Assembly: GCA_043814055.1 (NCBI GenBank)
Contig: JBDRKL010000009.1
Location: 17,751 to 81,750 of the forward strand
Length of the DNA: 64,000 nucleotides
Reading direction: 5' to 3'
Source of the DNA: an archaeon
GTDB taxonomy: Archaea > Undinarchaeota > Undinarchaeia > Undinarchaeales > JBDRKL01
Part shown: piece after piece, positions 7,562 through 53,294 of the stretch
How the letters are laid out: each line of letters starts with the position of its first letter
Position numbering within the stretch: position 1 is the first letter of the stretch
Made by a program: the position numbers and the translations under genes
Notes under the pieces: model-generated
Database searches by the model: none
What the model was told of the DNA's origin: nothing
Seen by the model: the letters and a program-made list of their open reading frames with translations, nothing else

Positions 7562-9057
7562 AAAACCTTGCTCAGGAACCACTCAGCATCAAATGACTTC
7601 ATGTCCGCGTAGCCCTGCCCAGTGCCGAAGTAGAGGATTGGAGCGTCTGTAACGTATGAGACCGAAATGCACGAGCCGCCCTTTGGGTCGCAGTCAACCT
7701 TTGTTAAGACCGAGCCGTCTATTCCGACTGCCTCGTGGAATGCCTTTGCCTGGTCTGCTGCGTCGTTTCCTGTGAGAGCGTCGCCAACGAAGATTTTGAG
7801 GTCAGGCTTGTTAACGCGCACGACCTTCTTGAGCTCGTCCATTAGGTTTATGTTGGTTCCTGAGCGGCCTGCGGTGTCTGCGAGAACGACGTCAATCTTT
7901 CTTGCCTTTGCGTGCGCTATCGCGTCGTAAATCACAGCTGCTGAGTCAGAGCCGCGCACCTGCTTGATGATTGGAACATTAAGGTTCTTTGCGTGAACGT
8001 CTAGCTGCTCAATTGCCGCGGCGCGGAACGTGTCCCCTGCCGCCATAACAACTGAAAGCCCAGCGTCCTGGAGCATTTTCGCGAACTTGCCTATGGTCAT
8101 TGTCTTGCCAGTGCCGTTGAAGCCGAAAAAGACAATCACATAGGGTTTGTCCTTCTTGGCCTTGATGAGCTTGATTATGTCCGGCTGCTCCTTGGTGAGT
8201 ATTTTTTGCAGCGAGTCCTTGATTGCAGATTCAATCATTTGCTCAGGGCTCTTGCTTGAGGTCTCCTCTTCCATCAGGCGCGCCTTGGTTTCGGCGGTTA
8301 TTGCCTCTGTGACTTCTTTTGCAATGTCGTTCTCAAGCAGGAGTAGTTCAAGCTCCCAGAGTATTTTATCAAGATTTTTCTCTGAGATTTTTTTGCGGGT
8401 GATGGAAAGAAAACGCTTTTTTGGCTTTTCAGGTTCTTTATCAGGCTCTTTTGGCTTCCTGAATCTTCCGAAGAAACCTTTCTTTTTTGGTTCTCCGCCT
8501 GCTCGCGGAGGTAGAGCGGAGGCATTCGCCCCTGGCGAAGCCTCTATCTTGGTTTCTTCTTTTACTTCGGGTTCAATTTCAGGTTCTGGAGTTGGTTCCT
8601 CTTCAACAATTGGTTCTGGCTCGGGTTCTTCTTCAGATTCCTCCTCTACCTCTGGTTCAGGCTCATCCTCAATTTCAGGTTCAGGCTTGGACTCCGACTC
8701 GGATTCAGGTTCAGCAACTGGCTCTAGCTCTTCAGGTTTTTCAGGTTCTGGCTCAAGCTCGACCTTAACTTCAGGCTTGGGTTCTTCAACCACCAGCTCA
8801 AGTTCCGGCTCAACCTGCCCCGGCTCAAGCTCGGCTTCAACCTCTTTTAGAATTTCGTCTTCAACCGCAGCCGCCTTTTTCTTTTCTTTCTTCGACTTCG
8901 TTTCCTTCTTCTTGGCTATTGGCGGTTGGCTCTTGGCTTTTGGCGCTTTAGGAACTTCCTCAACAACTTCGTCTACTGGCTCCTTTACCTCAACCTCAAC
9001 TTCAGCTGAGGCCTTGGACAAAAAGCCCTTGAGCTTCTTCTTGAGATTTTCAAACAT
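7558..9057 (-). CDS. ftsY: SRP receptor FtsY with long acidic N-terminal region
   Basis: GFNGTGKT, DTFRAAAIEQL, DTAGR, TKVD motifs; follows pfdA. Confidence 0.97.
   Translation of the reverse strand: MFENLKKKLKGFLSKASAEVEVEVKEPVDEVVEEVPKAPKAKSQPPIAKKKETKSKKEKKKAAAVEDEILKEVEAELEPGQVEPELELVVEEPKPEVKVELEPEPEKPEELEPVAEPESESESKPEPEIEDEPEPEVEEESEEEPEPEPIVEEEPTPEPEIEPEVKEETKIEASPGANASALPPRAGGEPKKKGFFGRFRKPKEPDKEPEKPKKRFLSITRKKISEKNLDKILWELELLLLENDIAKEVTEAITAETKARLMEEETSSKSPEQMIESAIKDSLQKILTKEQPDIIKLIKAKKDKPYVIVFFGFNGTGKTMTIGKFAKMLQDAGLSVVMAAGDTFRAAAIEQLDVHAKNLNVPIIKQVRGSDSAAVIYDAIAHAKARKIDVVLADTAGRSGTNINLMDELKKVVRVNKPDLKIFVGDALTGNDAADQAKAFHEAVGIDGSVLTKVDCDPKGGSCISVSYVTDAPILYFGTGQGYADMKSFDAEWFLSKVF
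8492..8548 (-). repeat. REP-like double-hairpin element, copy 1 (in-frame inside ftsY)
   Basis: 48/57 nt identical to 28009-28065; encodes IEASPGANASALPPRAGGE. Confidence 0.85.
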
Positions 9058-9510: not shown

Positions 9511-9869
9511 TCTCCGGCTGCTCCCGGAGGGTGAGCGGAGGCATTCGCATCCGGCGAAGCCGCTTTATTATCTCCTTTTTCCTTAGGCGCACCTTCGTGC
9601 GCTGCTTCTTTTTCCCTGACTGAGGTGCCTTCTGCTTTTAACATCCCTTTCTTTGCCTTTGCCGGCAGAACTTTCTTTGCTTCTGGCTTGAACTCCTCAA
9701 CTTTCTCAATCTTTATTTGAGCTCGCTTTATCCCGTGATTTGAGCCAACCAATGAATAGACCTTGTCAAGCGCGCGTGCTTCTTTAAGTTCGGTAACTTC
9801 CTTGGTAAAAATCTGCTTATTTCCACGCTGTACAAAACTTCCTATGATTCTAAAATGTTTAACACTCAT
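9507..9869 (-). CDS. rpl18a: 50S ribosomal protein eL20 (L18Ae/LX) with C-terminal extension
   Basis: FTKEV...ALDKVYSLVGSNHGIKRAQIKIEKVEE signature; position upstream of pfdA. Confidence 0.92.
   Translation of the reverse strand: MSVKHFRIIGSFVQRGNKQIFTKEVTELKEARALDKVYSLVGSNHGIKRAQIKIEKVEEFKPEAKKVLPAKAKKGMLKAEGTSVREKEAAHEGAPKEKGDNKAASPDANASAHPPGAAGE
9511..9563 (-). repeat. REP-like double-hairpin element, copy 2 (in-frame 3' end of rpl18a)
   Basis: Encodes AASPDANASAHPPGAAGE; same two-hairpin architecture as copy 1. Confidence 0.85.
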
Positions 9870-9946
9870 TTTGAATTTTCCTCCACTTCATCAGCTTTAA
9901 AATAAACACGAAGCTGATTGACCTGCGTTATTGCTTTGCGTCTCAT
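9866..9946 (-). promoter_or_regulatory. Bridging mini-ORF/hairpin cassette A (26 codons) between rpl31e and rpl18a
   Basis: ATG 5 nt after the rpl31e stop; TGA overlaps the rpl18a ATG (ATGA); contains CAAAGC...CAGCTTCGTGTTTATTTTAAAGCTG. Confidence 0.6.
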
Positions 9947-9951
9947 TATAT

Positions 9952-10491
9952 TTACCTGAGCTTGATCACTGCTCTGCCGTTTTCATCTTCGCCAATCACA
10001 ACTCGAAGCTGATATGGCGGTTTCTTGCGGCCGCGCTCCCAGATTTTCTCGTTTACTTCCTTTGTGATTACGACTTTGTCCGCCTTGGTGTGCTTCTTTG
10101 CGAACGCCTTGAGCATAGAAATTGTGTATCGCGCTTTCTTGCCCCTTACTGCGTTATTCCTAAGCGGGATTGTGTAAAGGTGGTCAGTGCCCTTGAGCCT
10201 GGTTGGCTTGACATTCTTCGGCGCAGCCTTGGATTCCTTGAGCTCGCTGATGGTGTCCATTGCGCGCTCCACAACCGTGCCCTTCTTCTTTGGCTGCGGC
10301 TTTGCCTTTGCCTCTTTCTTATCCTTGACTGCTGGCTCTTCCTTTGAGGCAGCCTTTGGCTTAGCCTTCTCTTCTTCTGCCGCTGCAGACTGACGCTTCG
10401 CGTCAGTTGCACGCTTGACTTCGTCAAGCTGTGCCTCTGCCTGAGCTTCTTTCAGAATTTCATCTTCTACACTTGCTTTATCTTTAGCCAT
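9952..10491 (-). CDS. rpl31e: 50S ribosomal protein eL31 with long N-terminal extension
   Basis: LYTIPLR...VNEKIWERGRKKPP signature in the C-terminal half. Confidence 0.92.
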   Translation of the reverse strand: MAKDKASVEDEILKEAQAEAQLDEVKRATDAKRQSAAAEEEKAKPKAASKEEPAVKDKKEAKAKPQPKKKGTVVERAMDTISELKESKAAPKNVKPTRLKGTDHLYTIPLRNNAVRGKKARYTISMLKAFAKKHTKADKVVITKEVNEKIWERGRKKPPYQLRVVIGEDENGRAVIKLR

Positions 10492-10492
10492 T

Positions 10493-10612
10493 TCAAAGTC
10501 TCCTAATCTTCATCTGCTTTGAAACTTCGGACGCGGGGCGTCCGAGGCACACACACTTCGTGTGTGATGTGCAGACGAAGCTGAAATTATTTAACATGCT
10601 TTGTCTCGTCAT
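10493..10612 (-). promoter_or_regulatory. Bridging mini-ORF/hairpin cassette B (39 codons, with two extra hairpins) between rpl39e and rpl31e
   Basis: ATG 2 nt after the rpl39e stop; TGA-A-ATG junction with rpl31e; peptide MTRQSMLNNFSFVCTSHTKCVCLGRPASEVSKQMKIRRL. Confidence 0.6.
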
Positions 10613-18941: not shown

Positions 18942-20264
18942 TTATCCACGCAGCTCTTTCATATGGTCAATGCGCTTCTGCACCAGCTCTGGCTTGCCAA
19001 TGTCAGGCCTGTAGAACAATTTGTCGCACTGCACGGATGAGATTGCAGACTCTGCGATTTTCTCAGCTTCTTCAATCGTGTCTGCGAAGCCTGTGATTCC
19101 AAATGAGCGCGATGTGCTTGTGTAAAGCTCGCCATCTTTCAGGTCAACTGAGGCGTAGTAGAGCTTTGCGCCGAGCCGCGTGATTTCTTCCTCGTCAATT
19201 GAGACCTTTGCGCCTGACTCAGGGCTCTCAGGGTAGCCTGTTGGGACAAGGTACTTGCAGACCGAGGCAAGATTTTCAAACTCAATAACTTTTGGCAAAC
19301 TACCCTCAAGCATTGACTGGCACAGGAAGCTGAAATCGGTCTTGAGTAATGGGAGAATGTTCATCGCTTCCGGGTCGCCGAAGCGCACGTTGTATTCAAT
19401 AATTTTTGGTCCGTCCTTTGTGAGCATAAACTGCCCGTAGAGAACGCCCTTGTAAATTGTTCCGGTTCTTTTCTTCAGCGCAGCGATTGTGCGCTTCATA
19501 ATGTCAAGCGCTTCGTCAACATCTTTCTGCTCAAGAAAAGGCAATAGGTGATTTGCGTCAGAGTATGAGCCCATTCCGCCTGTCATCGGTCCTGTGTCGC
19601 CCTCGTGCGCCTGCTTGTGGTCCTGCACAAGTGGAAGCGGAACAACTTCTGTGCCGTCTGTGAAAACATGGAGCGTGAACTCCTCCCCAACGAGTTTTTC
19701 CTCAATTACCACAACGCCTGAGCCGCCAATTTGGTTCTCAACAACCTCAAGCGCGTAGTCCCGCGCCTCATACAAGTCCCTGAGCTGCTGACCCATGACC
19801 TTGACGCCCTTGCCGCCGGTGAGCCCTGCGGGCTTGATGACTATTTCTGTGTCAAATTCCTGAATCGCTTTGAGAACATCCTCGCGGTTGGAGCACACGC
19901 GGAACTTGGGGTAGCCGCCGTCAAGATGCTCCTGCATCAGGTCGCGGCAGAACGCCTTGTCAGACTCAAGCCGGGCTGCAGCGCTTGTCGGACCAACCAC
20001 GCCAAAGCCGTTCTTCTGCAATTCATCCCCAACGCCTTTAGCAAGCGGGTCCTCAGGGCCGATGAAAATGTAGTCAGGCTTCACGTGGAGCGCGTATTTC
20101 AAAACTGCTTTTGAATTATTAATGTCGCCGAGTTCGTGACCTTTTGCAAGCGCCATTATGCCAGGGTTGCGGGCCTTCATAAACGCGTAGAGCTCTGAGC
20201 CCTTTGCCATCTGCTCAGCAAGCGCGTGTTCACGCGCTCCGTTGCCTATTAGGAGGGATTTCAA
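18942..20264 (-). CDS. purD: Phosphoribosylamine-glycine ligase
   Basis: GNGAREHAL, GGKGV, QDHK, GPMTGGMG, RFGDPE; TTG start. Confidence 0.97.
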   Translation of the reverse strand: MKSLLIGNGAREHALAEQMAKGSELYAFMKARNPGIMALAKGHELGDINNSKAVLKYALHVKPDYIFIGPEDPLAKGVGDELQKNGFGVVGPTSAAARLESDKAFCRDLMQEHLDGGYPKFRVCSNREDVLKAIQEFDTEIVIKPAGLTGGKGVKVMGQQLRDLYEARDYALEVVENQIGGSGVVVIEEKLVGEEFTLHVFTDGTEVVPLPLVQDHKQAHEGDTGPMTGGMGSYSDANHLLPFLEQKDVDEALDIMKRTIAALKKRTGTIYKGVLYGQFMLTKDGPKIIEYNVRFGDPEAMNILPLLKTDFSFLCQSMLEGSLPKVIEFENLASVCKYLVPTGYPESPESGAKVSIDEEEITRLGAKLYYASVDLKDGELYTSTSRSFGITGFADTIEEAEKIAESAISSVQCDKLFYRPDIGKPELVQKRIDHMKELRG

Positions 20265-20335
20265 AGCTTCACCGCCCTTAACAGCTTTGAAATAAACGCG
20301 AAGCTGTATAACAAATTTCTTGCTTTGCGTTTCAC
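20261..20335 (-). promoter_or_regulatory. Bridging mini-ORF/hairpin cassette C (24 codons) between purF and purD
   Basis: GTG 1 nt after the purF stop; TGA overlaps the purD TTG; ATTTCAAAGCT/AGCTTTGAAAT 11-bp inverted repeat covers the start codon. Confidence 0.62.
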
Positions 20336-20336
20336 T

Positions 20337-21782
20337 TCAATTGTCCTCCCCGCGCTCGCACTTCCTGCACTTGTCAAGAAGGTCTGCGTATTTTTTAATA
20401 TCAGTTGGGTATTCCCCGTTTAGGCAGGCAAGGCAGAGGTTTTCCTTTGGCATTCCGGTTGACTCCACGAGGCCGTCAATTGTCTGGTAAGTGAGGGAGT
20501 CTGCTCCGATTTTCTTTGCGATTTCATCAACCGACAGCCCAGAAGCTATGAGCTCATCCTTAGTTGGGAAGTCAACGCCGTAGTAGCACGGCTCTGTGAG
20601 CGGCGGGCAGGAGCTGAGGAAGTGTACTTCCTTTGCGCCGACTTCGCGGAGCATTTGGATTATGCGCTTTGAAGTTGTGCCGCGGACAATGCTGTCGTCA
20701 ACGAGCGCAACGCGCTTCCCGCTGATTTCTTTGATTACAGGATTGAGCTTTGTGCGCACAGCGCTTTCCCTGTTTTTCTGAGTAGGCATTAAGAATGTTC
20801 TCCCCACGTAGCGGTTCTTGATAAGGCCTTCGCGATATGGGACTCCGATTTCAGTTGCAAAAGTTAGCGCAGCTGTTCGGGAAGTGTCTGGCGCAGGTAT
20901 TACAACATCAACTTCAATCTTCTTTTTCATCCACTCCTTGGCAAGCATCCTGCCGAGCTCAAGCCGAGCTTCGTAAACGCCGTGCTTTTCTATAACAGAG
21001 TCAGGCCGTGCGAAGTAGACCCATTCAAACATGCAGTGCCTGCGCTGTTCTTTTTTTATGCTTTTTGTAGTGACTACTCCGTCCTTGGAAATGAACACTG
21101 CTTCGCCGGGCTCTAAATCTTTAACAACCTTGTAGCCGAGTACGTCAAGCACAACGGTTTCGGATGCAAATATGTGTTGATCTTTTCCATCAACCACGCG
21201 CTTGCCCCAGATGATTGGCCTTATGCCGTGCGGGTCGCGGAAAGCGAGCAGGCCTTCGCGCGCGATAAGCGTTACTACAGAATAGCTACCGTTCAGGCGC
21301 TCCATTGTTTTTGAAATTGCGTCAAATATGATTTCAGGGTTGAGGCCGTTGCCGTTTGCTTTTGAAAGCTCGGTCGCGAAGAGCTTGAGTATGAGTTCAG
21401 CATCGCAGTTAGTGCGTATCTGCCTGTGGCACTCACCCATCAGGTGCTTGCGGAGCTCGTCGTAGTTCACTGTGTTTCCGTTGTGCGCCATCCCAATGCC
21501 ATATGGGTAGCCGGTCTGGATTGGCTGGGCGTCCCTGCGCACGTCAGAGCCGATGGTGGGGTAGCGCACGTGGCCGATGCCAATATTGCCTTTGAGTTCG
21601 TGCAGGTTCACGCTGTTGAAGCATTCTGATACAAGCCCTGGGCCTTTCTTCATGTGAAGCGCATCACCATCAAAAGTTAGAATTCCACAGCCATCCTGCC
21701 CGCGGTGCTGTATCTGCAGCAATCCATTGAATAGCTCAAATGCAACATTTTCCGGGCCAATGATTCCTATAAATCCGCACAT
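20337..21782 (-). CDS. purF: Amidophosphoribosyltransferase
   Basis: MCG N-terminus, QHRGQD, VDDSIVRGTTS, Fe-S cysteines (CLAC). Confidence 0.98.
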   Translation of the reverse strand: MCGFIGIIGPENVAFELFNGLLQIQHRGQDGCGILTFDGDALHMKKGPGLVSECFNSVNLHELKGNIGIGHVRYPTIGSDVRRDAQPIQTGYPYGIGMAHNGNTVNYDELRKHLMGECHRQIRTNCDAELILKLFATELSKANGNGLNPEIIFDAISKTMERLNGSYSVVTLIAREGLLAFRDPHGIRPIIWGKRVVDGKDQHIFASETVVLDVLGYKVVKDLEPGEAVFISKDGVVTTKSIKKEQRRHCMFEWVYFARPDSVIEKHGVYEARLELGRMLAKEWMKKKIEVDVVIPAPDTSRTAALTFATEIGVPYREGLIKNRYVGRTFLMPTQKNRESAVRTKLNPVIKEISGKRVALVDDSIVRGTTSKRIIQMLREVGAKEVHFLSSCPPLTEPCYYGVDFPTKDELIASGLSVDEIAKKIGADSLTYQTIDGLVESTGMPKENLCLACLNGEYPTDIKKYADLLDKCRKCERGEDN

Positions 21783-32947: not shown

Positions 32948-33095
32948 GGGCCCGTGGTCTAGTGGCTATGACGTCTCCCTTACAACCCTTTTGCTTCGCA
33001 AAAGCGTTGACGGAAAAGAAACCGTCTTCGCGGCGATTGGAGCACGAGGGAAAGAACGGAGAAGTTCACAGGTTCGACTCCTGTTGGGCCCACCA
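32948..33095 (+). tRNA. tRNA-Val(TAC) with 72-nt intron (32985-33056)
   Basis: Acceptor GGGCCCG/TGGGCCC; anticodon stem TCTCC/GGAGA; intron at 37/38 in a relaxed BHB; encoded CCA. Confidence 0.9.
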
Positions 33096-34131: not shown

Positions 34132-35031
34132 TTAAATTTCTTCCAAAGTCGCACAATACTTGCAAATTTTAGCAGGAGTTCTTTCTCCGCACTCTGGGCA
34201 GTTGTTCAATTTGGGATTGTCAAACTTGCCCTCAAGCAATGGCATAAGATTGTTAACGCCCTTGAGAATCTGGAACTTTGTACCAGGGTGCGCTGCCTCT
34301 AATTCATTGAGCTTGTTCCTGATTGAGCAGCGCAGGGACTGCTGGACATATGGGCACTCGTCGTTGTGGAATGGAAAACCCTGCACGATTGTGTACAACC
34401 CAATTTCCTTTTCAGGCACTTCGCGTAGCGGCTTCACGCGCGGCACATAGCCCTTTTGAGTTGGAGTTTTTGCACCAATGCGGGACATTCTTGCGAAGTC
34501 CCCGCGGAAATAATTCATCACTGTGCTCTGCACTTCATCGTCCAAATTGTGCCCTGTTGCGACAACATCAGCTTTTAATTCTTTCGCCGCGTTGTTCATG
34601 ATTCGCCTGCGGATTACGCCGCAGTAGGTGCACGGAATTTTGTCGCCCTTCTTCGCAATCTGATCCATTGTCTTCCCGACTTCGTCCTTGAAATTGTAAA
34701 TCACTGCAGGCACGTCAAGCTCTTCAAAATTCTTAATCGCGATTTTGACACTTTCGTCACGGTAGCCCTTGATGCCCTCGTCAACCACAATGCCTGTGAG
34801 CCTGAGTGGCATTTGCTTTGCGAACTTGTGCATAAACCTGAGCAGTGTGACTGAGTCCTTGCCGCCGGAGATGCCCATCACAACGTGGTCGTTGCGTTTG
34901 AAAAGTTTGTTCTTGCTGATGTTCTTTCTGATTCTGTCATCGGTCAATTTGATAAAATGGTCTGTGCAGAGCTTGCGATTCATATAGCGCAGGTAGGCCA
35001 CGGCTTTCTTGGAACAGCGGTCGCATTTCAT
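34132..35031 (-). CDS. tRNA 2-thiolation protein (TtuA/Ncs6 family)
   Basis: N- and C-terminal zinc fingers, SGGKDS, CTYCGVIRR, TGHNLDDE, CPY. Confidence 0.93.
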   Translation of the reverse strand: MKCDRCSKKAVAYLRYMNRKLCTDHFIKLTDDRIRKNISKNKLFKRNDHVVMGISGGKDSVTLLRFMHKFAKQMPLRLTGIVVDEGIKGYRDESVKIAIKNFEELDVPAVIYNFKDEVGKTMDQIAKKGDKIPCTYCGVIRRRIMNNAAKELKADVVATGHNLDDEVQSTVMNYFRGDFARMSRIGAKTPTQKGYVPRVKPLREVPEKEIGLYTIVQGFPFHNDECPYVQQSLRCSIRNKLNELEAAHPGTKFQILKGVNNLMPLLEGKFDNPKLNNCPECGERTPAKICKYCATLEEI

Positions 35032-35090
35032 CTCGAAGCACCTCCGCTTTGAGATGAGCCCGGTCTCAAATTGCAAGGTCTGGGCCTCAT
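35028..35090 (-). promoter_or_regulatory. Bridging mini-ORF/hairpin cassette E (20 codons, diverged) between the SAMP and TtuA genes
   Basis: ATG 1 nt after the upstream stop; ATGA overlap with the TtuA start; ATCTCAAAGC-GGAGGT-GCTTCGAGAT stem encloses the RBS. Confidence 0.5.
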
Positions 35091-36993: not shown

Positions 36994-37094
36994 AGCCCCG
37001 TAGTGTAGCGGCCAAGCACTCCGGCCTTTGACCTGTGTTTGATAAAAACTCAGGAAGACAGCCGGTAACGGCAGTTCGAATCTGCCCGGGGCTA
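36994..37094 (+). tRNA. tRNA-Gln(TTG) with 28-nt intron (37032-37059)
   Basis: Acceptor AGCCCCG/CGGGGCT; anticodon stem CCGGC/GCCGG; BHB at 37/38. Confidence 0.93.
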
Positions 37095-40269: not shown

Positions 40270-40400
40270 GGTAAAAAGTAGTGTATTTGCTTATTTATAC
40301 CCTCCTAGAAAAACAAAAAGCTTAAAAACAATCAAGTATAGACATACTGCGTTAGGACACTTTTTCTCAAAGTTAGTCCACTGAGCGGGAGAATAATCAA

Positions 40401-40475
40401 ATGGCACAACAAAGCCTGACAAGGCACACCAGCTTTGTGTGGATTTCAAAGCTGGATAAAAAGGAGGAACTTTGA
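40401..40475 (+). promoter_or_regulatory. Mini-ORF/hairpin cassette D (24 codons) upstream of slyD
   Basis: MAQQSLTRHTSFVWISKLDKKEEL; TGA-A-ATG junction; ATTTCAAAG/CTTTGAAAT stem around GGAGG. Confidence 0.6.
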
Positions 40476-40476
40476 A

Positions 40477-41190
40477 ATGGCAGAAAAGATACAGGAAGGG
40501 GATTTCATCACAATAGATTACATTGGGCGTGTCAAGGACACGGGAATGATTTTTGACCTCACGAATGAGGAGATTGCGAAAAAGGAAGGCCTGAACACAG
40601 AGGGTACGGTTTACGGCCCTGTCACGGTTGTTGTAGGAGCTAGGCATGTTGTGCCTGGGCTTGACAAACAGCTCAGCTCGCTCAGCGTGGGGGAGAAGAA
40701 AAAGATTGACATTGAATCAGCTGATGCATTCGGCAGCAAGGACGCTGAACTCGTGAAGCTCGTTCCAATGAATGTTTTCAAGAGGCAGAAGGTGAACCCG
40801 ATTCCGGGAATGCCTGTTGAGCTTGAAAGGCAGAAGGGAATTGTGAAATCAGTGAGCGGCGGCCGCGTTAAAGTGGATTTCAATCACCCGCTTGCTGGAA
40901 AAACACTGGAATATGAGGTTGAGGTCAAGGGAAAAATAATCAAGGCTGAGGAGCAGGTTAGAAGCATACTCAAACTGCACGTGCCAAGTGTTGAAATTAA
41001 GGACGTCAAGATAGCGGTTACGGAAAAAGAAGTTGAAATTAGCACGCCGAATGAGATGCAAACCAGAAGGTATATAAACCTAACAGAGGAAATAACTGCA
41101 CGAGATATACTTAAGTACGTCAAGGGGGCAAATCGCGTGCGGTTTGTTGATGTATTTGAAAAGGGAGAATCTAATATTAAAAACTCTTAG
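40477..41190 (+). CDS. slyD: Long-type FKBP peptidyl-prolyl isomerase
   Basis: DYIGRVKDTG, GGRVKVDFNHPLAGKTL. Confidence 0.93.
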   Translation: MAEKIQEGDFITIDYIGRVKDTGMIFDLTNEEIAKKEGLNTEGTVYGPVTVVVGARHVVPGLDKQLSSLSVGEKKKIDIESADAFGSKDAELVKLVPMNVFKRQKVNPIPGMPVELERQKGIVKSVSGGRVKVDFNHPLAGKTLEYEVEVKGKIIKAEEQVRSILKLHVPSVEIKDVKIAVTEKEVEISTPNEMQTRRYINLTEEITARDILKYVKGANRVRFVDVFEKGESNIKNS

Positions 41191-52088: not shown

Positions 52089-53294
52089 TTACATAACCAT
52101 CATGCTGCCAAACATTTGGGTTATAAAGTACCGCACAAGGAAGAAAATAGTAACCCCGCAGATTACGAAAATTGGAGCGTACTGGAGGCCTTTCTTCTCG
52201 TCGCCATTCTTGATTAAACCATAGAGGAGCGAAGCAAAGAACGTAATTATGATGATTGCAGTCAGTGCAAAGTAGAATAGGAAGTCAGGACCAATTGAGG
52301 ATGTAAAGCCCATAAGCCCCATGCCGCTAGCCGATGCGTCTGTAGACATATCACCAAACCCAATTGCCTCAGTCATCTTGGTAATCATTTCAACGAAGAA
52401 TGTGGATATGCCAAGCAAAAGCGGGGCACCTCCGAGTGATGCAAACGCAACGAACATAGTGTACATAGAGGTGTTGGTTGCCATCTCTTTTTCAAGAATT
52501 AATAGTGATTGTATTTCTTCAGCGGTTTCGTCCAGCAATTTTGCAAGCTCTCCGCCGGATTCCATTCCCTCTACTATCAGGCGAACGGTTCTCCCGAGTA
52601 TAGGGGAGCGAACGTGCTCACTCATTATGAGAAACGCCTCTGTGAGAGGAGTTCCACCCAGAGATTCTGAACCGACCTTTTTTATTTCCTTTGCGAACTC
52701 GCCAAATTCTTCGCGGGCAGACATCCATATGGCGCGGTCAGGCGTCATTCCCGCCCGTATGTTTGCAGCTATGAGCTGCAGGGCGCTCGGGAGTATTTTT
52801 TCAATCTCAATTGCCCGCTTGTTTACTTTTAGGGAGAGCATTGTAAACGAGCCGCCGAATATGCTGACAAACACAATGGGAACAGCGATTAGTGCGTAGA
52901 ACATTGGGAGATATCCCAACATAAAAAGAGCCAACGGCAATGCAATTGCCATCACTATGGCTAGGATTATGCGCTTTGCAACCCAGATAGAGCCTGAACC
53001 TGAGAGCCCAGCGTACACCAGTAGCTTGGAAGCACTAACACCCCATTTTGTTGGGAGCATGCGGCTAAATTTCTTGTAGCGATTCTTGGTTTTTTCCGCG
53101 TTCTTCACCTTTGGCATTTCCTTTGAGGCTTCCTTTAGGATTTCCTTTGAGGCTTCCTTGGGCATTTCCTTCAGCACCCTCTTTAGAATTTCCTTTGATT
53201 TTTCCTTGGGCATTTCCTTCAGAGCCCCCTTTAGGATTTCCTTTGCTTTTTCCTTTGGCGGTTCCTTGGAGATTTTCTTTGCTTTTTTCATCAC
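52089..53294 (-). CDS. Type IV pilus platform protein (TadC/T2SSF) with N-terminal KExx repeats
   Basis: LPSALQLIAANIRAGM, GMESGGELA motifs; TM helices. Confidence 0.92.
   Translation of the reverse strand: MMKKAKKISKEPPKEKAKEILKGALKEMPKEKSKEILKRVLKEMPKEASKEILKEASKEMPKVKNAEKTKNRYKKFSRMLPTKWGVSASKLLVYAGLSGSGSIWVAKRIILAIVMAIALPLALFMLGYLPMFYALIAVPIVFVSIFGGSFTMLSLKVNKRAIEIEKILPSALQLIAANIRAGMTPDRAIWMSAREEFGEFAKEIKKVGSESLGGTPLTEAFLIMSEHVRSPILGRTVRLIVEGMESGGELAKLLDETAEEIQSLLILEKEMATNTSMYTMFVAFASLGGAPLLLGISTFFVEMITKMTEAIGFGDMSTDASASGMGLMGFTSSIGPDFLFYFALTAIIIITFFASLLYGLIKNGDEKKGLQYAPIFVICGVTIFFLVRYFITQMFGSMMVM
53112..53279 (-). repeat. 14 x 12-bp coding tandem repeat with a 48-bp higher-order period
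   Basis: KKIS KEPP KEKA KEIL KGAL KEMP KEKS KEIL KRVL KEMP KEAS KEIL KEAS KEMP. Confidence 0.85.

Follow-up and report, generated by a model that had tools for sequence, protein, structure and literature searches.

The cassette between purF and purD

The window, a stretch of 64,000 nucleotides (nt) from an Undinarchaeota contig (JBDRKL010000009.1), contains a short repeated cassette in the spacer between a purF-like open reading frame (ORF) and purD. This copy of the cassette, referred to here as C, comprises a mini-ORF, two hairpin stems and an internal Shine–Dalgarno (SD) sequence, and it carries the purD start codon at its end. Its parts and neighbors are given below, with the arm coordinates of this and all other minus-strand copies read 5' to 3' on the minus strand.

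20337..21782, minus strand: purF-like ORF, with its stop TGA at 20337..20339, 1 nt 5' of the mini-ORF GTG
20258..20335, minus strand: cassette C, the purF–purD spacer, with mini-ORF, stem 1, stem 2, internal SD and the purD start
20261..20335, minus strand: mini-ORF of C, 24 codons, starting at GTG (20335..20333)
20294..20332, minus strand: stem 1 of C, AAACGCAAAGC (20332..20322) with GCTTCGCGTTT (20304..20294)
20258..20293, minus strand: stem 2 of C, ATTTCAAAGCT (20293..20283) with AGCTTTGAAAT (20268..20258)
18942..20264, minus strand: purD, 440 amino acids, TTG start

The mini-ORF of C is preceded by GGGGAGG, located within purF 9 nt 5' of the GTG, and its stop TGA (20263..20261) overlaps the purD TTG (20264..20262) as TTGA. 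Stem 1 closes a 17-nt loop and has a single A.C mismatch. Stem 2 is a perfect helix of 11 bp with a 14-nt loop, in which the internal SD, GGTGA (20273..20269), lies 4 nt before the purD TTG; both this TTG and the stop TGA of the mini-ORF are contained in the 3' arm. A second pairing is available between the two stems, joining CAGCTTCG (20306..20299) with CAAAGCTG (20289..20282) in 7 of 8 pairs. An earlier note on this DNA had described the 11-bp stem that buries the purD TTG with GGTGA in its loop, along with an upstream alternative, and both are present. The stems that it described in four other copies were likewise found (9 bp in D, 8 bp in B, around a GGAGGT loop in E, and weaker in A), as was the complementarity of CAAAGC and GCTTYG, which is common to both hairpins. 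The minimum free energy (MFE) structure of the sense RNA of C is exactly stem 1 plus stem 2, at -21.4 kcal/mol, and the fold is unremarkable for its composition (z -1.30, with 21 of 200 shuffles folding equally well).

A repeat family at start codons

Copy C (nhmmer E 2.3e-15; 78 bits with a covariance model, CM) belongs to a family of 31 copies detected at nhmmer E < 0.01 on 8 of the 14 contigs of the genome assembly searched (979,685 bases, 0.98 Mb; 82% complete). Four additional diverged copies were found by eye (E, C4:23507, C7:111906 and C9:267). The CM, made from 24 copies, recovers the nhmmer copies and gives 44 matches at E ≤ 1 in its own genome, partly opposite-strand or partial matches on the same copies, while a regular expression for the arm pairs returns about 19 oriented copies genome-wide. 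Cassettes are approximately 60–135 nt long, typically about 75 nt. The consensus reads ATG-AGRCRCAAAGC, a loop of about 17 nt, (CA)GCTTYGYGT and nnA in the 5' half, followed by TTTCAAAG, CTGrtgaaa..GGAGG/GGTGA..a and CTTTGA-A-ATG in the 3' half. The loop motif CTGATGAAA varies across copies (CTGGAGAAA, CTGGTAAAA, CTGTTAAGG); loop 1 has no consistent TATA-like box and is missing altogether from short cassette variants. Median pairwise identity across the family is 0.65. One pair, the spt4 and porB copies, is about 99% identical over 134 nt, including a nested insertion, and has unrelated flanks.

All 31 copies are oriented in the same direction as the following gene, and 27 of them keep the gene's ATG. 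Cassettes are located mostly at tight stop/start junctions within operons, and the genes behind them, named from their translations with no family search, are unrelated housekeeping genes, including those for EF-2, transketolase, topoisomerase VI, purD, ribosomal proteins and antiporter subunits. A bulge-helix-bulge (BHB) intron, a box C/D or K-turn motif, an internal archaeal promoter and a terminator were each considered from the sequence alone as identities for the cassette, and were rejected.

The family appears restricted to this lineage. Scanning the window against Rfam 15 at the gathering score gave no match on any cassette, and the only matches in the window were an archaeal signal recognition particle (SRP) RNA and four tRNA matches. 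A CM search of 40 other genomes, comprising relatives and other archaea, returned no convincing cassette match; a weak match in G011 (E 1.8e-4) was rejected, being AT-rich, matching on both strands and lacking the SD/ATG layout. Eight single matches in bacterial metagenome-assembled genomes, from a pattern scan of a genome collection, were taken as chance. A pattern scan of metagenomes gave at least 118 stretches, and the 80 examined were all unrelated, with none convincing by CM. Metagenome loci L069, L072, L074, L077, L078 and others (OMLO01..., Ga0126337_...) hold an unrelated, highly repeated element, which has TTTCAAAG-N18-CTTTGAAATG in common with the cassette, conserved flanks and no SD.

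Insertion into tight gene junctions

Genomes of the same order were compared with this genome (G000) at four junctions, none of which holds the cassette in these relatives. At top6B/top6A, the cassette was found in 0 of 10 relatives' loci, nine of which have 0–11 nt from stop to start versus 72 nt here. Among the four relatives with purF upstream of purD, three have an ATGA overlap. The tktN/tktC junction, occupied by a cassette in this genome, is a stop/start overlap in 8 of 10 relatives, and at the EF-2 junction, again with a cassette here, the upstream stop lies 4–10 nt before the ATG in 9 of 11. The EF-2 site reads TGAttttaaATGGCACG in G010 and TAAttttaaaaaATGGCAC-cassette-ATGGCACG in G000, a target duplication of 7 nt. 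Over 20 copies, the bases that follow the mini-ORF ATG match those that follow the gene ATG beyond permutations (p = 0.0002), with a match of at least 3 nt in five of the copies (p = 5e-5). Duplications measure 7 nt at EF-2 and hyp87 and 6 nt at FKBP, hist and gmd, and elsewhere consist only of ATG or ATGA; judged from these alignments, the target duplication may often have been the ATG alone, or may have decayed. The two cassette ends have only CAAAG/CTTTG (5 nt) in common as inverted ends. Mobilization of the IS200/IS605 type was considered and rejected: the search for a Y1 transposase came up empty, and the zinc-ribbon domain of TnpB matched only below the cut-off.

The unusual start of purD may be a product of such an insertion. 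Its N-terminus, MKSLLIGNG, aligns from residue 1 with the relatives' proteins, whose genes start ATG AAA TCN. An ancestral ATGAAATCC placed after the cassette end CTTTGAA would create a GAAAT-GAAAT repeat, and loss of one GAAAT unit would leave CTTTGAAATCC, in which TTG AAA TCC would restore the purD frame. Outside the window, at C10:112125-112162 (+), a second copy is followed by an ORF that seems to be TTG-started within the 3' arm (CTTTGAAATTCC), like purD.

Other spacers at the same junctions were also observed in relatives. Locus L195 (G009:C48), from another genus of the order, has a 60-nt spacer between top6B and top6A (approximately 1423-1490 of the oriented locus) with its own 17-codon mini-ORF ending in an ATGA overlap, an internal GGTGA and an imperfect duplication of about 19 nt of the gene's first codons, and its sequence suggests that a different element was inserted here independently as a "relay". 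Spacers 5' of EF-2 and purD in L228 (G005) and L201 (G001) are occupied by other G+C-rich palindromic repeats, at sites that in G000 hold the cassette or that in most relatives hold none. Hairpin repeats at gene junctions seem, on these sequences, to be common in this order.

The mini-ORF and its frame

In this family the mini-ORF opens at the gene's old start codon, together with the old SD or an overlap with the upstream stop, and spans both covarying hairpins. It is typically 21–26 codons long, extending to 39–46 codons where there are nested insertions or tandem copies. Among the 22 mini-ORFs with canonical starts, 13 end as CTT TGA A ATG, one as TTGA (purD) and seven in an ATGA overlap, such that the stop lies 1 nt before or overlaps the regenerated start in 21 of 22; the remaining one runs 13 nt into the gene. 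None of the 22 shares the gene's frame. In 20 of 22 copies, the same strand carries an open frame of at least 60 amino acids upstream whose end falls from -36 to +1 relative to the mini-ORF start; in seven of these 20 the two form an ATGA overlap.

Two frames are in use across the family, giving different peptides (for example, MRHKARNLLISFVFISKLMKWRKL versus MRRKAGNFTKQLRAYFKAGERGEALK), and the peptide is not conserved. Seven of the eight copies in the second frame precede ATGA-starting genes, as do 4 of 13 first-frame copies (Fisher p = 0.024). The third frame is used by none of the shifted copies, all eight being in the one that ends at the start (binomial p = 0.008). The mini-ORF stays open across nested insertions of 45 nt (B) and 54 nt (spt4, porB). 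For the ten copies of equal length, the used frame is open in all ten where column resampling gives P(open) = 0.62, and a comparably permissive unused frame (P(open) = 0.60) is open in seven. The diverged copy C7:111906 has lost stem 2 and kept a 25-codon mini-ORF ending in ATGA. Comparison of the copies suggests that the mini-ORF frame behaves as if translated. GGAGG, as the internal SD within the stem 2 loop, is spaced 10 nt from the ATG, and GGTGA 9 nt; usual spacings in this genome, taken from a crude ORF set, are 5–9 nt for GGAGG and 3–9 nt for GGTGA, which puts the internal SD at their long end.

Covariation and predicted RNA folding

Beyond describing the stems, the earlier note had proposed that the cassettes encode mutually exclusive hairpins acting as an attenuator-like switch, in which a ribosome crossing the mini-ORF opens the downstream start. 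Pairs were counted on a CM-fitted alignment of 33 rows (A2), since the MAFFT alignment (A1) misplaces the 5' arm of stem 1 in the ATG-RCA-CAA subtype. Eight odd rows of A2 (the degenerate C9:267 copy, two matches on the opposite strand and several partial ones) were kept for the covariation tests and dropped for the MFE structures and mismatch counts; these eight and spt4 were dropped for the 24-copy ensembles and the strand-fold comparison.

On A2, stem 1 and stem 2 are paired in 90.5% of cells, and 14 of 17 pairs have changed on both sides. The covariation score of the two hairpins is 0.242 versus 0.096 in shuffles, with 0 of 500 shuffles as high and slid controls at 0.090 or below. Most of this signal comes from stem 1 (CAC/GUG, CGC/GCG, UAC/GUA). 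The arms of stem 2 are nearly invariant but show a few clean compensations. In rpoP, a C-G pair of stem 2 has become U-A with the stop still kept (TGA to TAA); the top6A and dCMP-deaminase copies have C-G for G-C, and other compensated stem 2 pairs are carried by E and C4:23507.

The same test gave no such result for the alternative helix, formed by the 3' arm of stem 1 and the 5' arm of stem 2, which is paired in 78.0% of cells versus 78.2% in shuffles. Its covariation was equaled in 190 of 500 shuffles, and in 78 of 500 when the helix was extended to 11 pairs. The complementarity behind this pairing exists because both hairpins share CAAAGC/GCTTYG. Uncompensated single-sided changes occur in its CAG/CTG extension in S28e, mnhG, hyp87, rpoP, pyrI and serA, while the change in top6A is compensated within stem 1 and not within the alternative helix. 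A position flanking the helix shows several pair types over 24 cells (CG 7, UA 3, UG 3, AU 1, GC 1, GU 1), a variety in favor of the alternative helix that is suggestive only because the subtypes share ancestry. Covariation speaks for stems 1 and 2 and not for the pairing that would compete with them.

Predicted ensembles of the free RNA place stem 2 at P > 0.5 in 13 of 24 copies and the alternative helix in 2 of 24 (EF2 and FKBP/D). Masking the 5' arm of stem 1, which mimics a ribosome, changes these numbers to 9 of 24 and 6 of 24, respectively. For copy C, the probabilities of stem 2 and the alternative helix are 0.83 and 0.00 in the free RNA and 0.24 and 0.02 when masked; only one of the two competing structures is thus populated in the equilibrium prediction (alternative P ≤ 0.02), an outcome that the earlier note had itself named as counting against its switch. 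The predicted ensembles differ widely from copy to copy, and on these predictions the family therefore does not encode a uniform two-state switch.

Which strand the hairpins serve

Mismatches in the stems are unevenly distributed between the strands, with 28 A.C mismatches (G.T wobbles on the other strand) versus four G.U, or 13 versus four when one conserved A.C site is left out. Measured against shuffles, 22 of 24 copies fold better as the complementary than as the mRNA strand when RNA parameters are used (mean z -4.0 versus -2.0), and 20 of 24 when DNA parameters are used. The antisense DNA of copy C has a z of -4.41, with 0 of 200 shuffles as good. As far as folding models can indicate, this asymmetry suggests that the hairpins were shaped as DNA, or that selection has weakened them in the mRNA, and would argue against a finely tuned mRNA switch. 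Because the complementary strand folds better, the hairpins probably serve the spread of the element as DNA.

A probable constitutive relay across an inserted repeat

We consider the cassette to be, with better than even probability, a lineage-restricted insertion resembling a miniature inverted-repeat transposable element (MITE) that carries a constitutive translational relay. This is the best reading of the layout of the cassette, the covariation of both its stems, the position and frame behavior of the mini-ORF and its status as an insertion, all of which are shown by the sequences. A ribosome arriving from the upstream gene, or bound at the old SD, would translate the mini-ORF and melt stem 2 in crossing it, would terminate at the regenerated start of the displaced gene, and the translation of that gene would then proceed from reinitiation and/or from new SD-dependent initiation once the RNA is open. 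The relay would in this manner restore a coupling otherwise broken by a spacer of about 75 nt, and would be constitutive, not a sensor. Since the mini-ORF crosses both hairpins to reach the downstream start, a crossing ribosome must open stem 2. This part of the earlier proposal, the opening of the start by a crossing ribosome, is retained, as the mini-ORF extends through both hairpins, ends at the start, has its own SD or overlap with an upstream stop and has a frame that looks translated; its assignment to an attenuator-like switch is not.

Several points weigh against the relay and the insertion that would have brought it. The covariation counts rest on an alignment fitted to the two-hairpin model, and the frame statistics on copies related by descent with few independent indels. 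The post-ATG match is 0 nt in 8 of 20 copies, and a duplication beyond the ATG is seen only in part of them. Searches of the 82%-complete genome gave 0 matches to Y1_Tnp and a TnpB domain only below cut-off, other transposase families not having been searched. Stem 2 exceeds P = 0.5 in only 13 of the 24 predicted ensembles, which suggests that opening may not be needed in every copy. Finally, an SD that lies in an open loop may be enough for initiation without the mini-ORF, which would then perhaps be no more than a by-product.

This last point is central to a view of the cassette as a purely selfish or neutral DNA repeat, in which the hairpins serve only DNA spread, the gene uses the SD and ATG of the cassette, and the mini-ORF is a side effect of insertion just after a start codon. 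The better fold of the complementary strand in 22 of 24 copies (for C, z -4.41 for antisense DNA versus -1.30 for sense RNA), the excess of A.C over G.U mismatches (28 versus 4), an SD in the loop at usable spacing and near-identical copying between loci are all consistent with it. However, we regard it as unlikely, given the avoidance of the gene's frame in 22 of 22 mini-ORFs, the association of the second frame with ATGA starts (p = 0.024), nested insertions that stay in frame, a used frame open in 10 of 10 copies where 0.62 per copy is expected, the shared orientation of all 31 copies with the following gene and the stop retained in rpoP (TGA to TAA) despite the change in its stem. The attenuator-like switch is less likely than an insertion with a constitutive relay, and we judge it improbable in absolute terms. 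In such a switch, with the four arms numbered in order, pairing of 1:2 and 3:4 would bury the start and pairing of 2:3 would free it, with ribosome position or stalling deciding between them and about 30 genes being co-regulated. The segments are indeed complementary (7 of 8 pairs in C, 78% of cells family-wide), several pair types occur at the flanking position, EF2 and FKBP (D) have the alternative helix as their predicted ground state, masking of segment 1 makes it dominant in 6 of 24 copies, and MFE structures show a further competing pairing of CATTT with either AAATG. Nonetheless, the 2:3 helix covaries no more than shuffles do (190 of 500 and 78 of 500 as high), its CAG/CTG changes are uncompensated in six copies and that of top6A is compensated within stem 1, and the ensembles vary widely, with the alternative at P ≤ 0.02 in C. 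A stalling peptide is not conserved, two frames being in use, and since the mini-ORF covers all four segments, any ribosome that finishes it opens stem 2 anyway. Moreover, the downstream genes have no common theme, and the insertion is absent from the relatives' junctions.

Recruitment of the cassette by the host as a regulatory module, with hairpins that bind a protein or melt with temperature to set the translation of a regulon, is very improbable in our estimation. The nearly invariant arms of stem 2, an AU-rich stem that covers the start codon and the many copies on the coding strand only would fit such a module, but the stop and start codons within the 3' arm account for its invariance, stem 2 is lost or weak in several copies, the genes are unrelated, and the cassette matches no Rfam family and is absent from relatives. 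We give hardly any credence to a programmed +1 frameshift at CUU UGA, which would lead part of the ribosomes to produce a fusion protein with an N-terminal extension. The bacterial prfB site has CUU UGA in the zero frame, preceded at 3 nt by an SD-like element, and its +1 frame is open. The cassette resembles it in that CTT TGA A ATG has GGAGGAAA or GGTGAAA immediately 5' in most copies, with GGAGG/GGTGA 2–3 nt upstream, and that after CTT the +1 frame reads GAA ATG into the gene. Against this, the stretch is read in a different frame by 7 of 22 mini-ORFs, and 27 of 31 copies have preserved an ATG for which frameshifting would have no use. A third frame is taken by the TTG starts of purD and one other gene, the relatives' orthologs begin at the same ATG, and no RF2-type feedback is known in archaea.

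Returning to the insertion with a constitutive relay, it may be possible to go further and regard the cassette as a start-codon-homing mobile element that brings its own relay (mini-ORF, SD, stop and regenerated start), with hairpins that act on the complementary DNA strand for an integration enzyme. We hold this extension to be plausible, although we would not bet on it. Such an element could occupy essential operon junctions with coupled translation while leaving the downstream gene active in a minimal genome; selfish DNA would here have a new way of living among densely packed genes, and synthetic bicistronic parts would have a natural counterpart. Word searches of the literature, the only kind made, found no description of a relay-carrying, start-codon-seeking repeat of this kind.

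In genomes near 1 Mb, spare DNA is almost absent, and stop/start overlaps tie the translation of many genes together. A repeat that sits on about 30 such junctions, with ribosomes probably still passing, bears on how minimal genomes tolerate insertions, and the cassettes offer a natural test bed for reinitiation versus RNA unfolding in archaeal coupling. For annotators, starts in this lineage may follow a translated bridge, or may be a TTG within a hairpin, as in purD.

Comparison with known systems

Overlapping gene pairs are translationally coupled in Haloferax volcanii and Escherichia coli (Huber et al. 2023, PMC10666635; Huber et al. 2019, PMC6728339), gaps of about 20 nt nearly abolish coupling in Haloferax and E. 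coli (PMC10666635), and models based on RNA unfolding and on termination-reinitiation are both on record (review, PMC12548453). The cassette has in common with coupling (PMC6728339, PMC10666635, PMC12548453) a stop and start that overlap (ATGA, TTGA) or lie 1 nt apart, an SD within the upstream frame and, where stem 2 is predicted to form, a hairpin over the downstream start that the upstream ribosome would have to open. In contrast to the coupled pairs described there, the "upstream gene" of the cassette is a frame of 21–26 codons with no conserved peptide, brought by the repeat itself, which forms a bridge between two real genes and recurs at about 30 loci. Synthetic bicistronic design (BCD) expression cassettes, reportedly introduced by Mutalik et al. 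in 2013, are similar in that the SD of the second cistron is contained in a short first one, which terminates at the second start codon or across it; from this shared layout it follows that the helicase activity of the ribosome would clear structure at the start. Unlike the BCD, which is engineered, the cassette occurs naturally as a genomic repeat, has hairpins and bears signs of insertion.

MITEs, repetitive extragenic palindromic (REP) sequences, bacterial interspersed mosaic elements (BIMEs), Correia elements and Rickettsia palindromic elements (RPEs) are small non-autonomous palindromic repeats. Like these, the cassette is short, multi-copy, lineage-restricted and without coding capacity of its own, and as in MITE-type repeats it has hairpins, inverted CAAAG/CTTTG ends, an apparent short target duplication in part of the copies and one near-identical pair at unlinked sites. 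It also survives within essential expression units, as RPEs do; however, RPEs are read as part of a protein, whereas the cassette would be read as a separate mini-frame. It differs from MITE-type repeats in its location at start codons in a single orientation, in the SD, stop and start that let translation pass, and in that searches with Y1_Tnp and TnpB found no cognate transposase. By analogy, the translation logic of the cassette would be that of known coupling and of synthetic bicistronic designs, and its genomic behavior that of MITE/REP/RPE-like repeats.

Attenuation of the ermC/cat type depends on a leader peptide with its own ribosome-binding site, on stalling and on the pairing of four segments. 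The cassette likewise has a leader ORF with its own ribosome-binding site, can pair as 1:2 plus 3:4 or as 2:3, and places the gene start in the 3:4 hairpin. It departs from this type in having no conserved stalling peptide, a leader that spans all four segments up to the gene start, a 2:3 helix without covariation support and housekeeping genes as the genes served.

Other copies in and beyond the window

Four further copies were found in the window.

9867..9947, minus strand: cassette A, before a 120-amino-acid ORF; stem 2 weak; mini-ORF of 26 codons with ATGA overlap
10489..10612, minus strand: cassette B, before a 179-amino-acid ORF; mini-ORF of 39 codons with its stop as TGA-A-ATG
35029..35090, minus strand: cassette E; mini-ORF of 20 codons with ATG at 35090..35088; gene ATG at 35031..35029, ATGA overlap
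40400..40479, plus strand: cassette D; mini-ORF of 24 codons with ATG at 40401-40403; gene ATG at 40477-40479

The ORF behind A is one that we take to be ribosomal protein LX, that behind B is presumably ribosomal protein L31e, and we assume the gene behind D to encode an FKBP-type isomerase. The 8-bp stem of B joins 10524..10517 with 10498..10491, and the 9-bp stem of D, around GGAGG, joins 40443-40451 with 40470-40478 on the plus strand. In E, a diverged copy below detection by nhmmer and CM, stem 2 pairs ATCTCAAAGC (35055..35046) with GCTTCGAGAT (35039..35030) in 9 of 10 pairs around a 6-nt GGAGGT loop and holds a compensated C-G pair. Cassette B has a nested insertion of 45 nt at approximately 10525-10569 (minus strand), in frame and with two G+C-rich hairpins, while the 54-nt nested insertion of the spt4 and porB copies (C11:6812-6945 and C10:26384-26517) forms one long hairpin. 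These nested insertions sit between stem 1 and stem 2, are multiples of three in length and bring no stop into the mini-ORF frame.

Two tandem double cassettes lie outside the window, at C7:65142-65285 (-) and C10:34927-35065 (+), with ATC in place of the ATG at the junction of the two units. In the second of these, a single mini-ORF of 46 codons runs across both units and ends at the gene's ATGA. A degenerate copy, also outside the window, is located at C9:267-337 (+), 6 nt 5' of a gene's ATG; ATA replaces both ATGs, AAAATAAGA stands on either side, and a C-G pair of stem 2 is inverted to G-C.

Elsewhere in the window, periodic repeats of 12 nt and of 24/42 nt (families D1 and D2) occur at 53084-53291 and 8555-8780 and are probably low-complexity coding sequence. 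Two of the Rfam tRNA matches, at 32948-33092 (+) (145 nt) and 36994-37094 (+) (101 nt), were left uncalled by ARAGORN and are probably intron-bearing tRNA genes.

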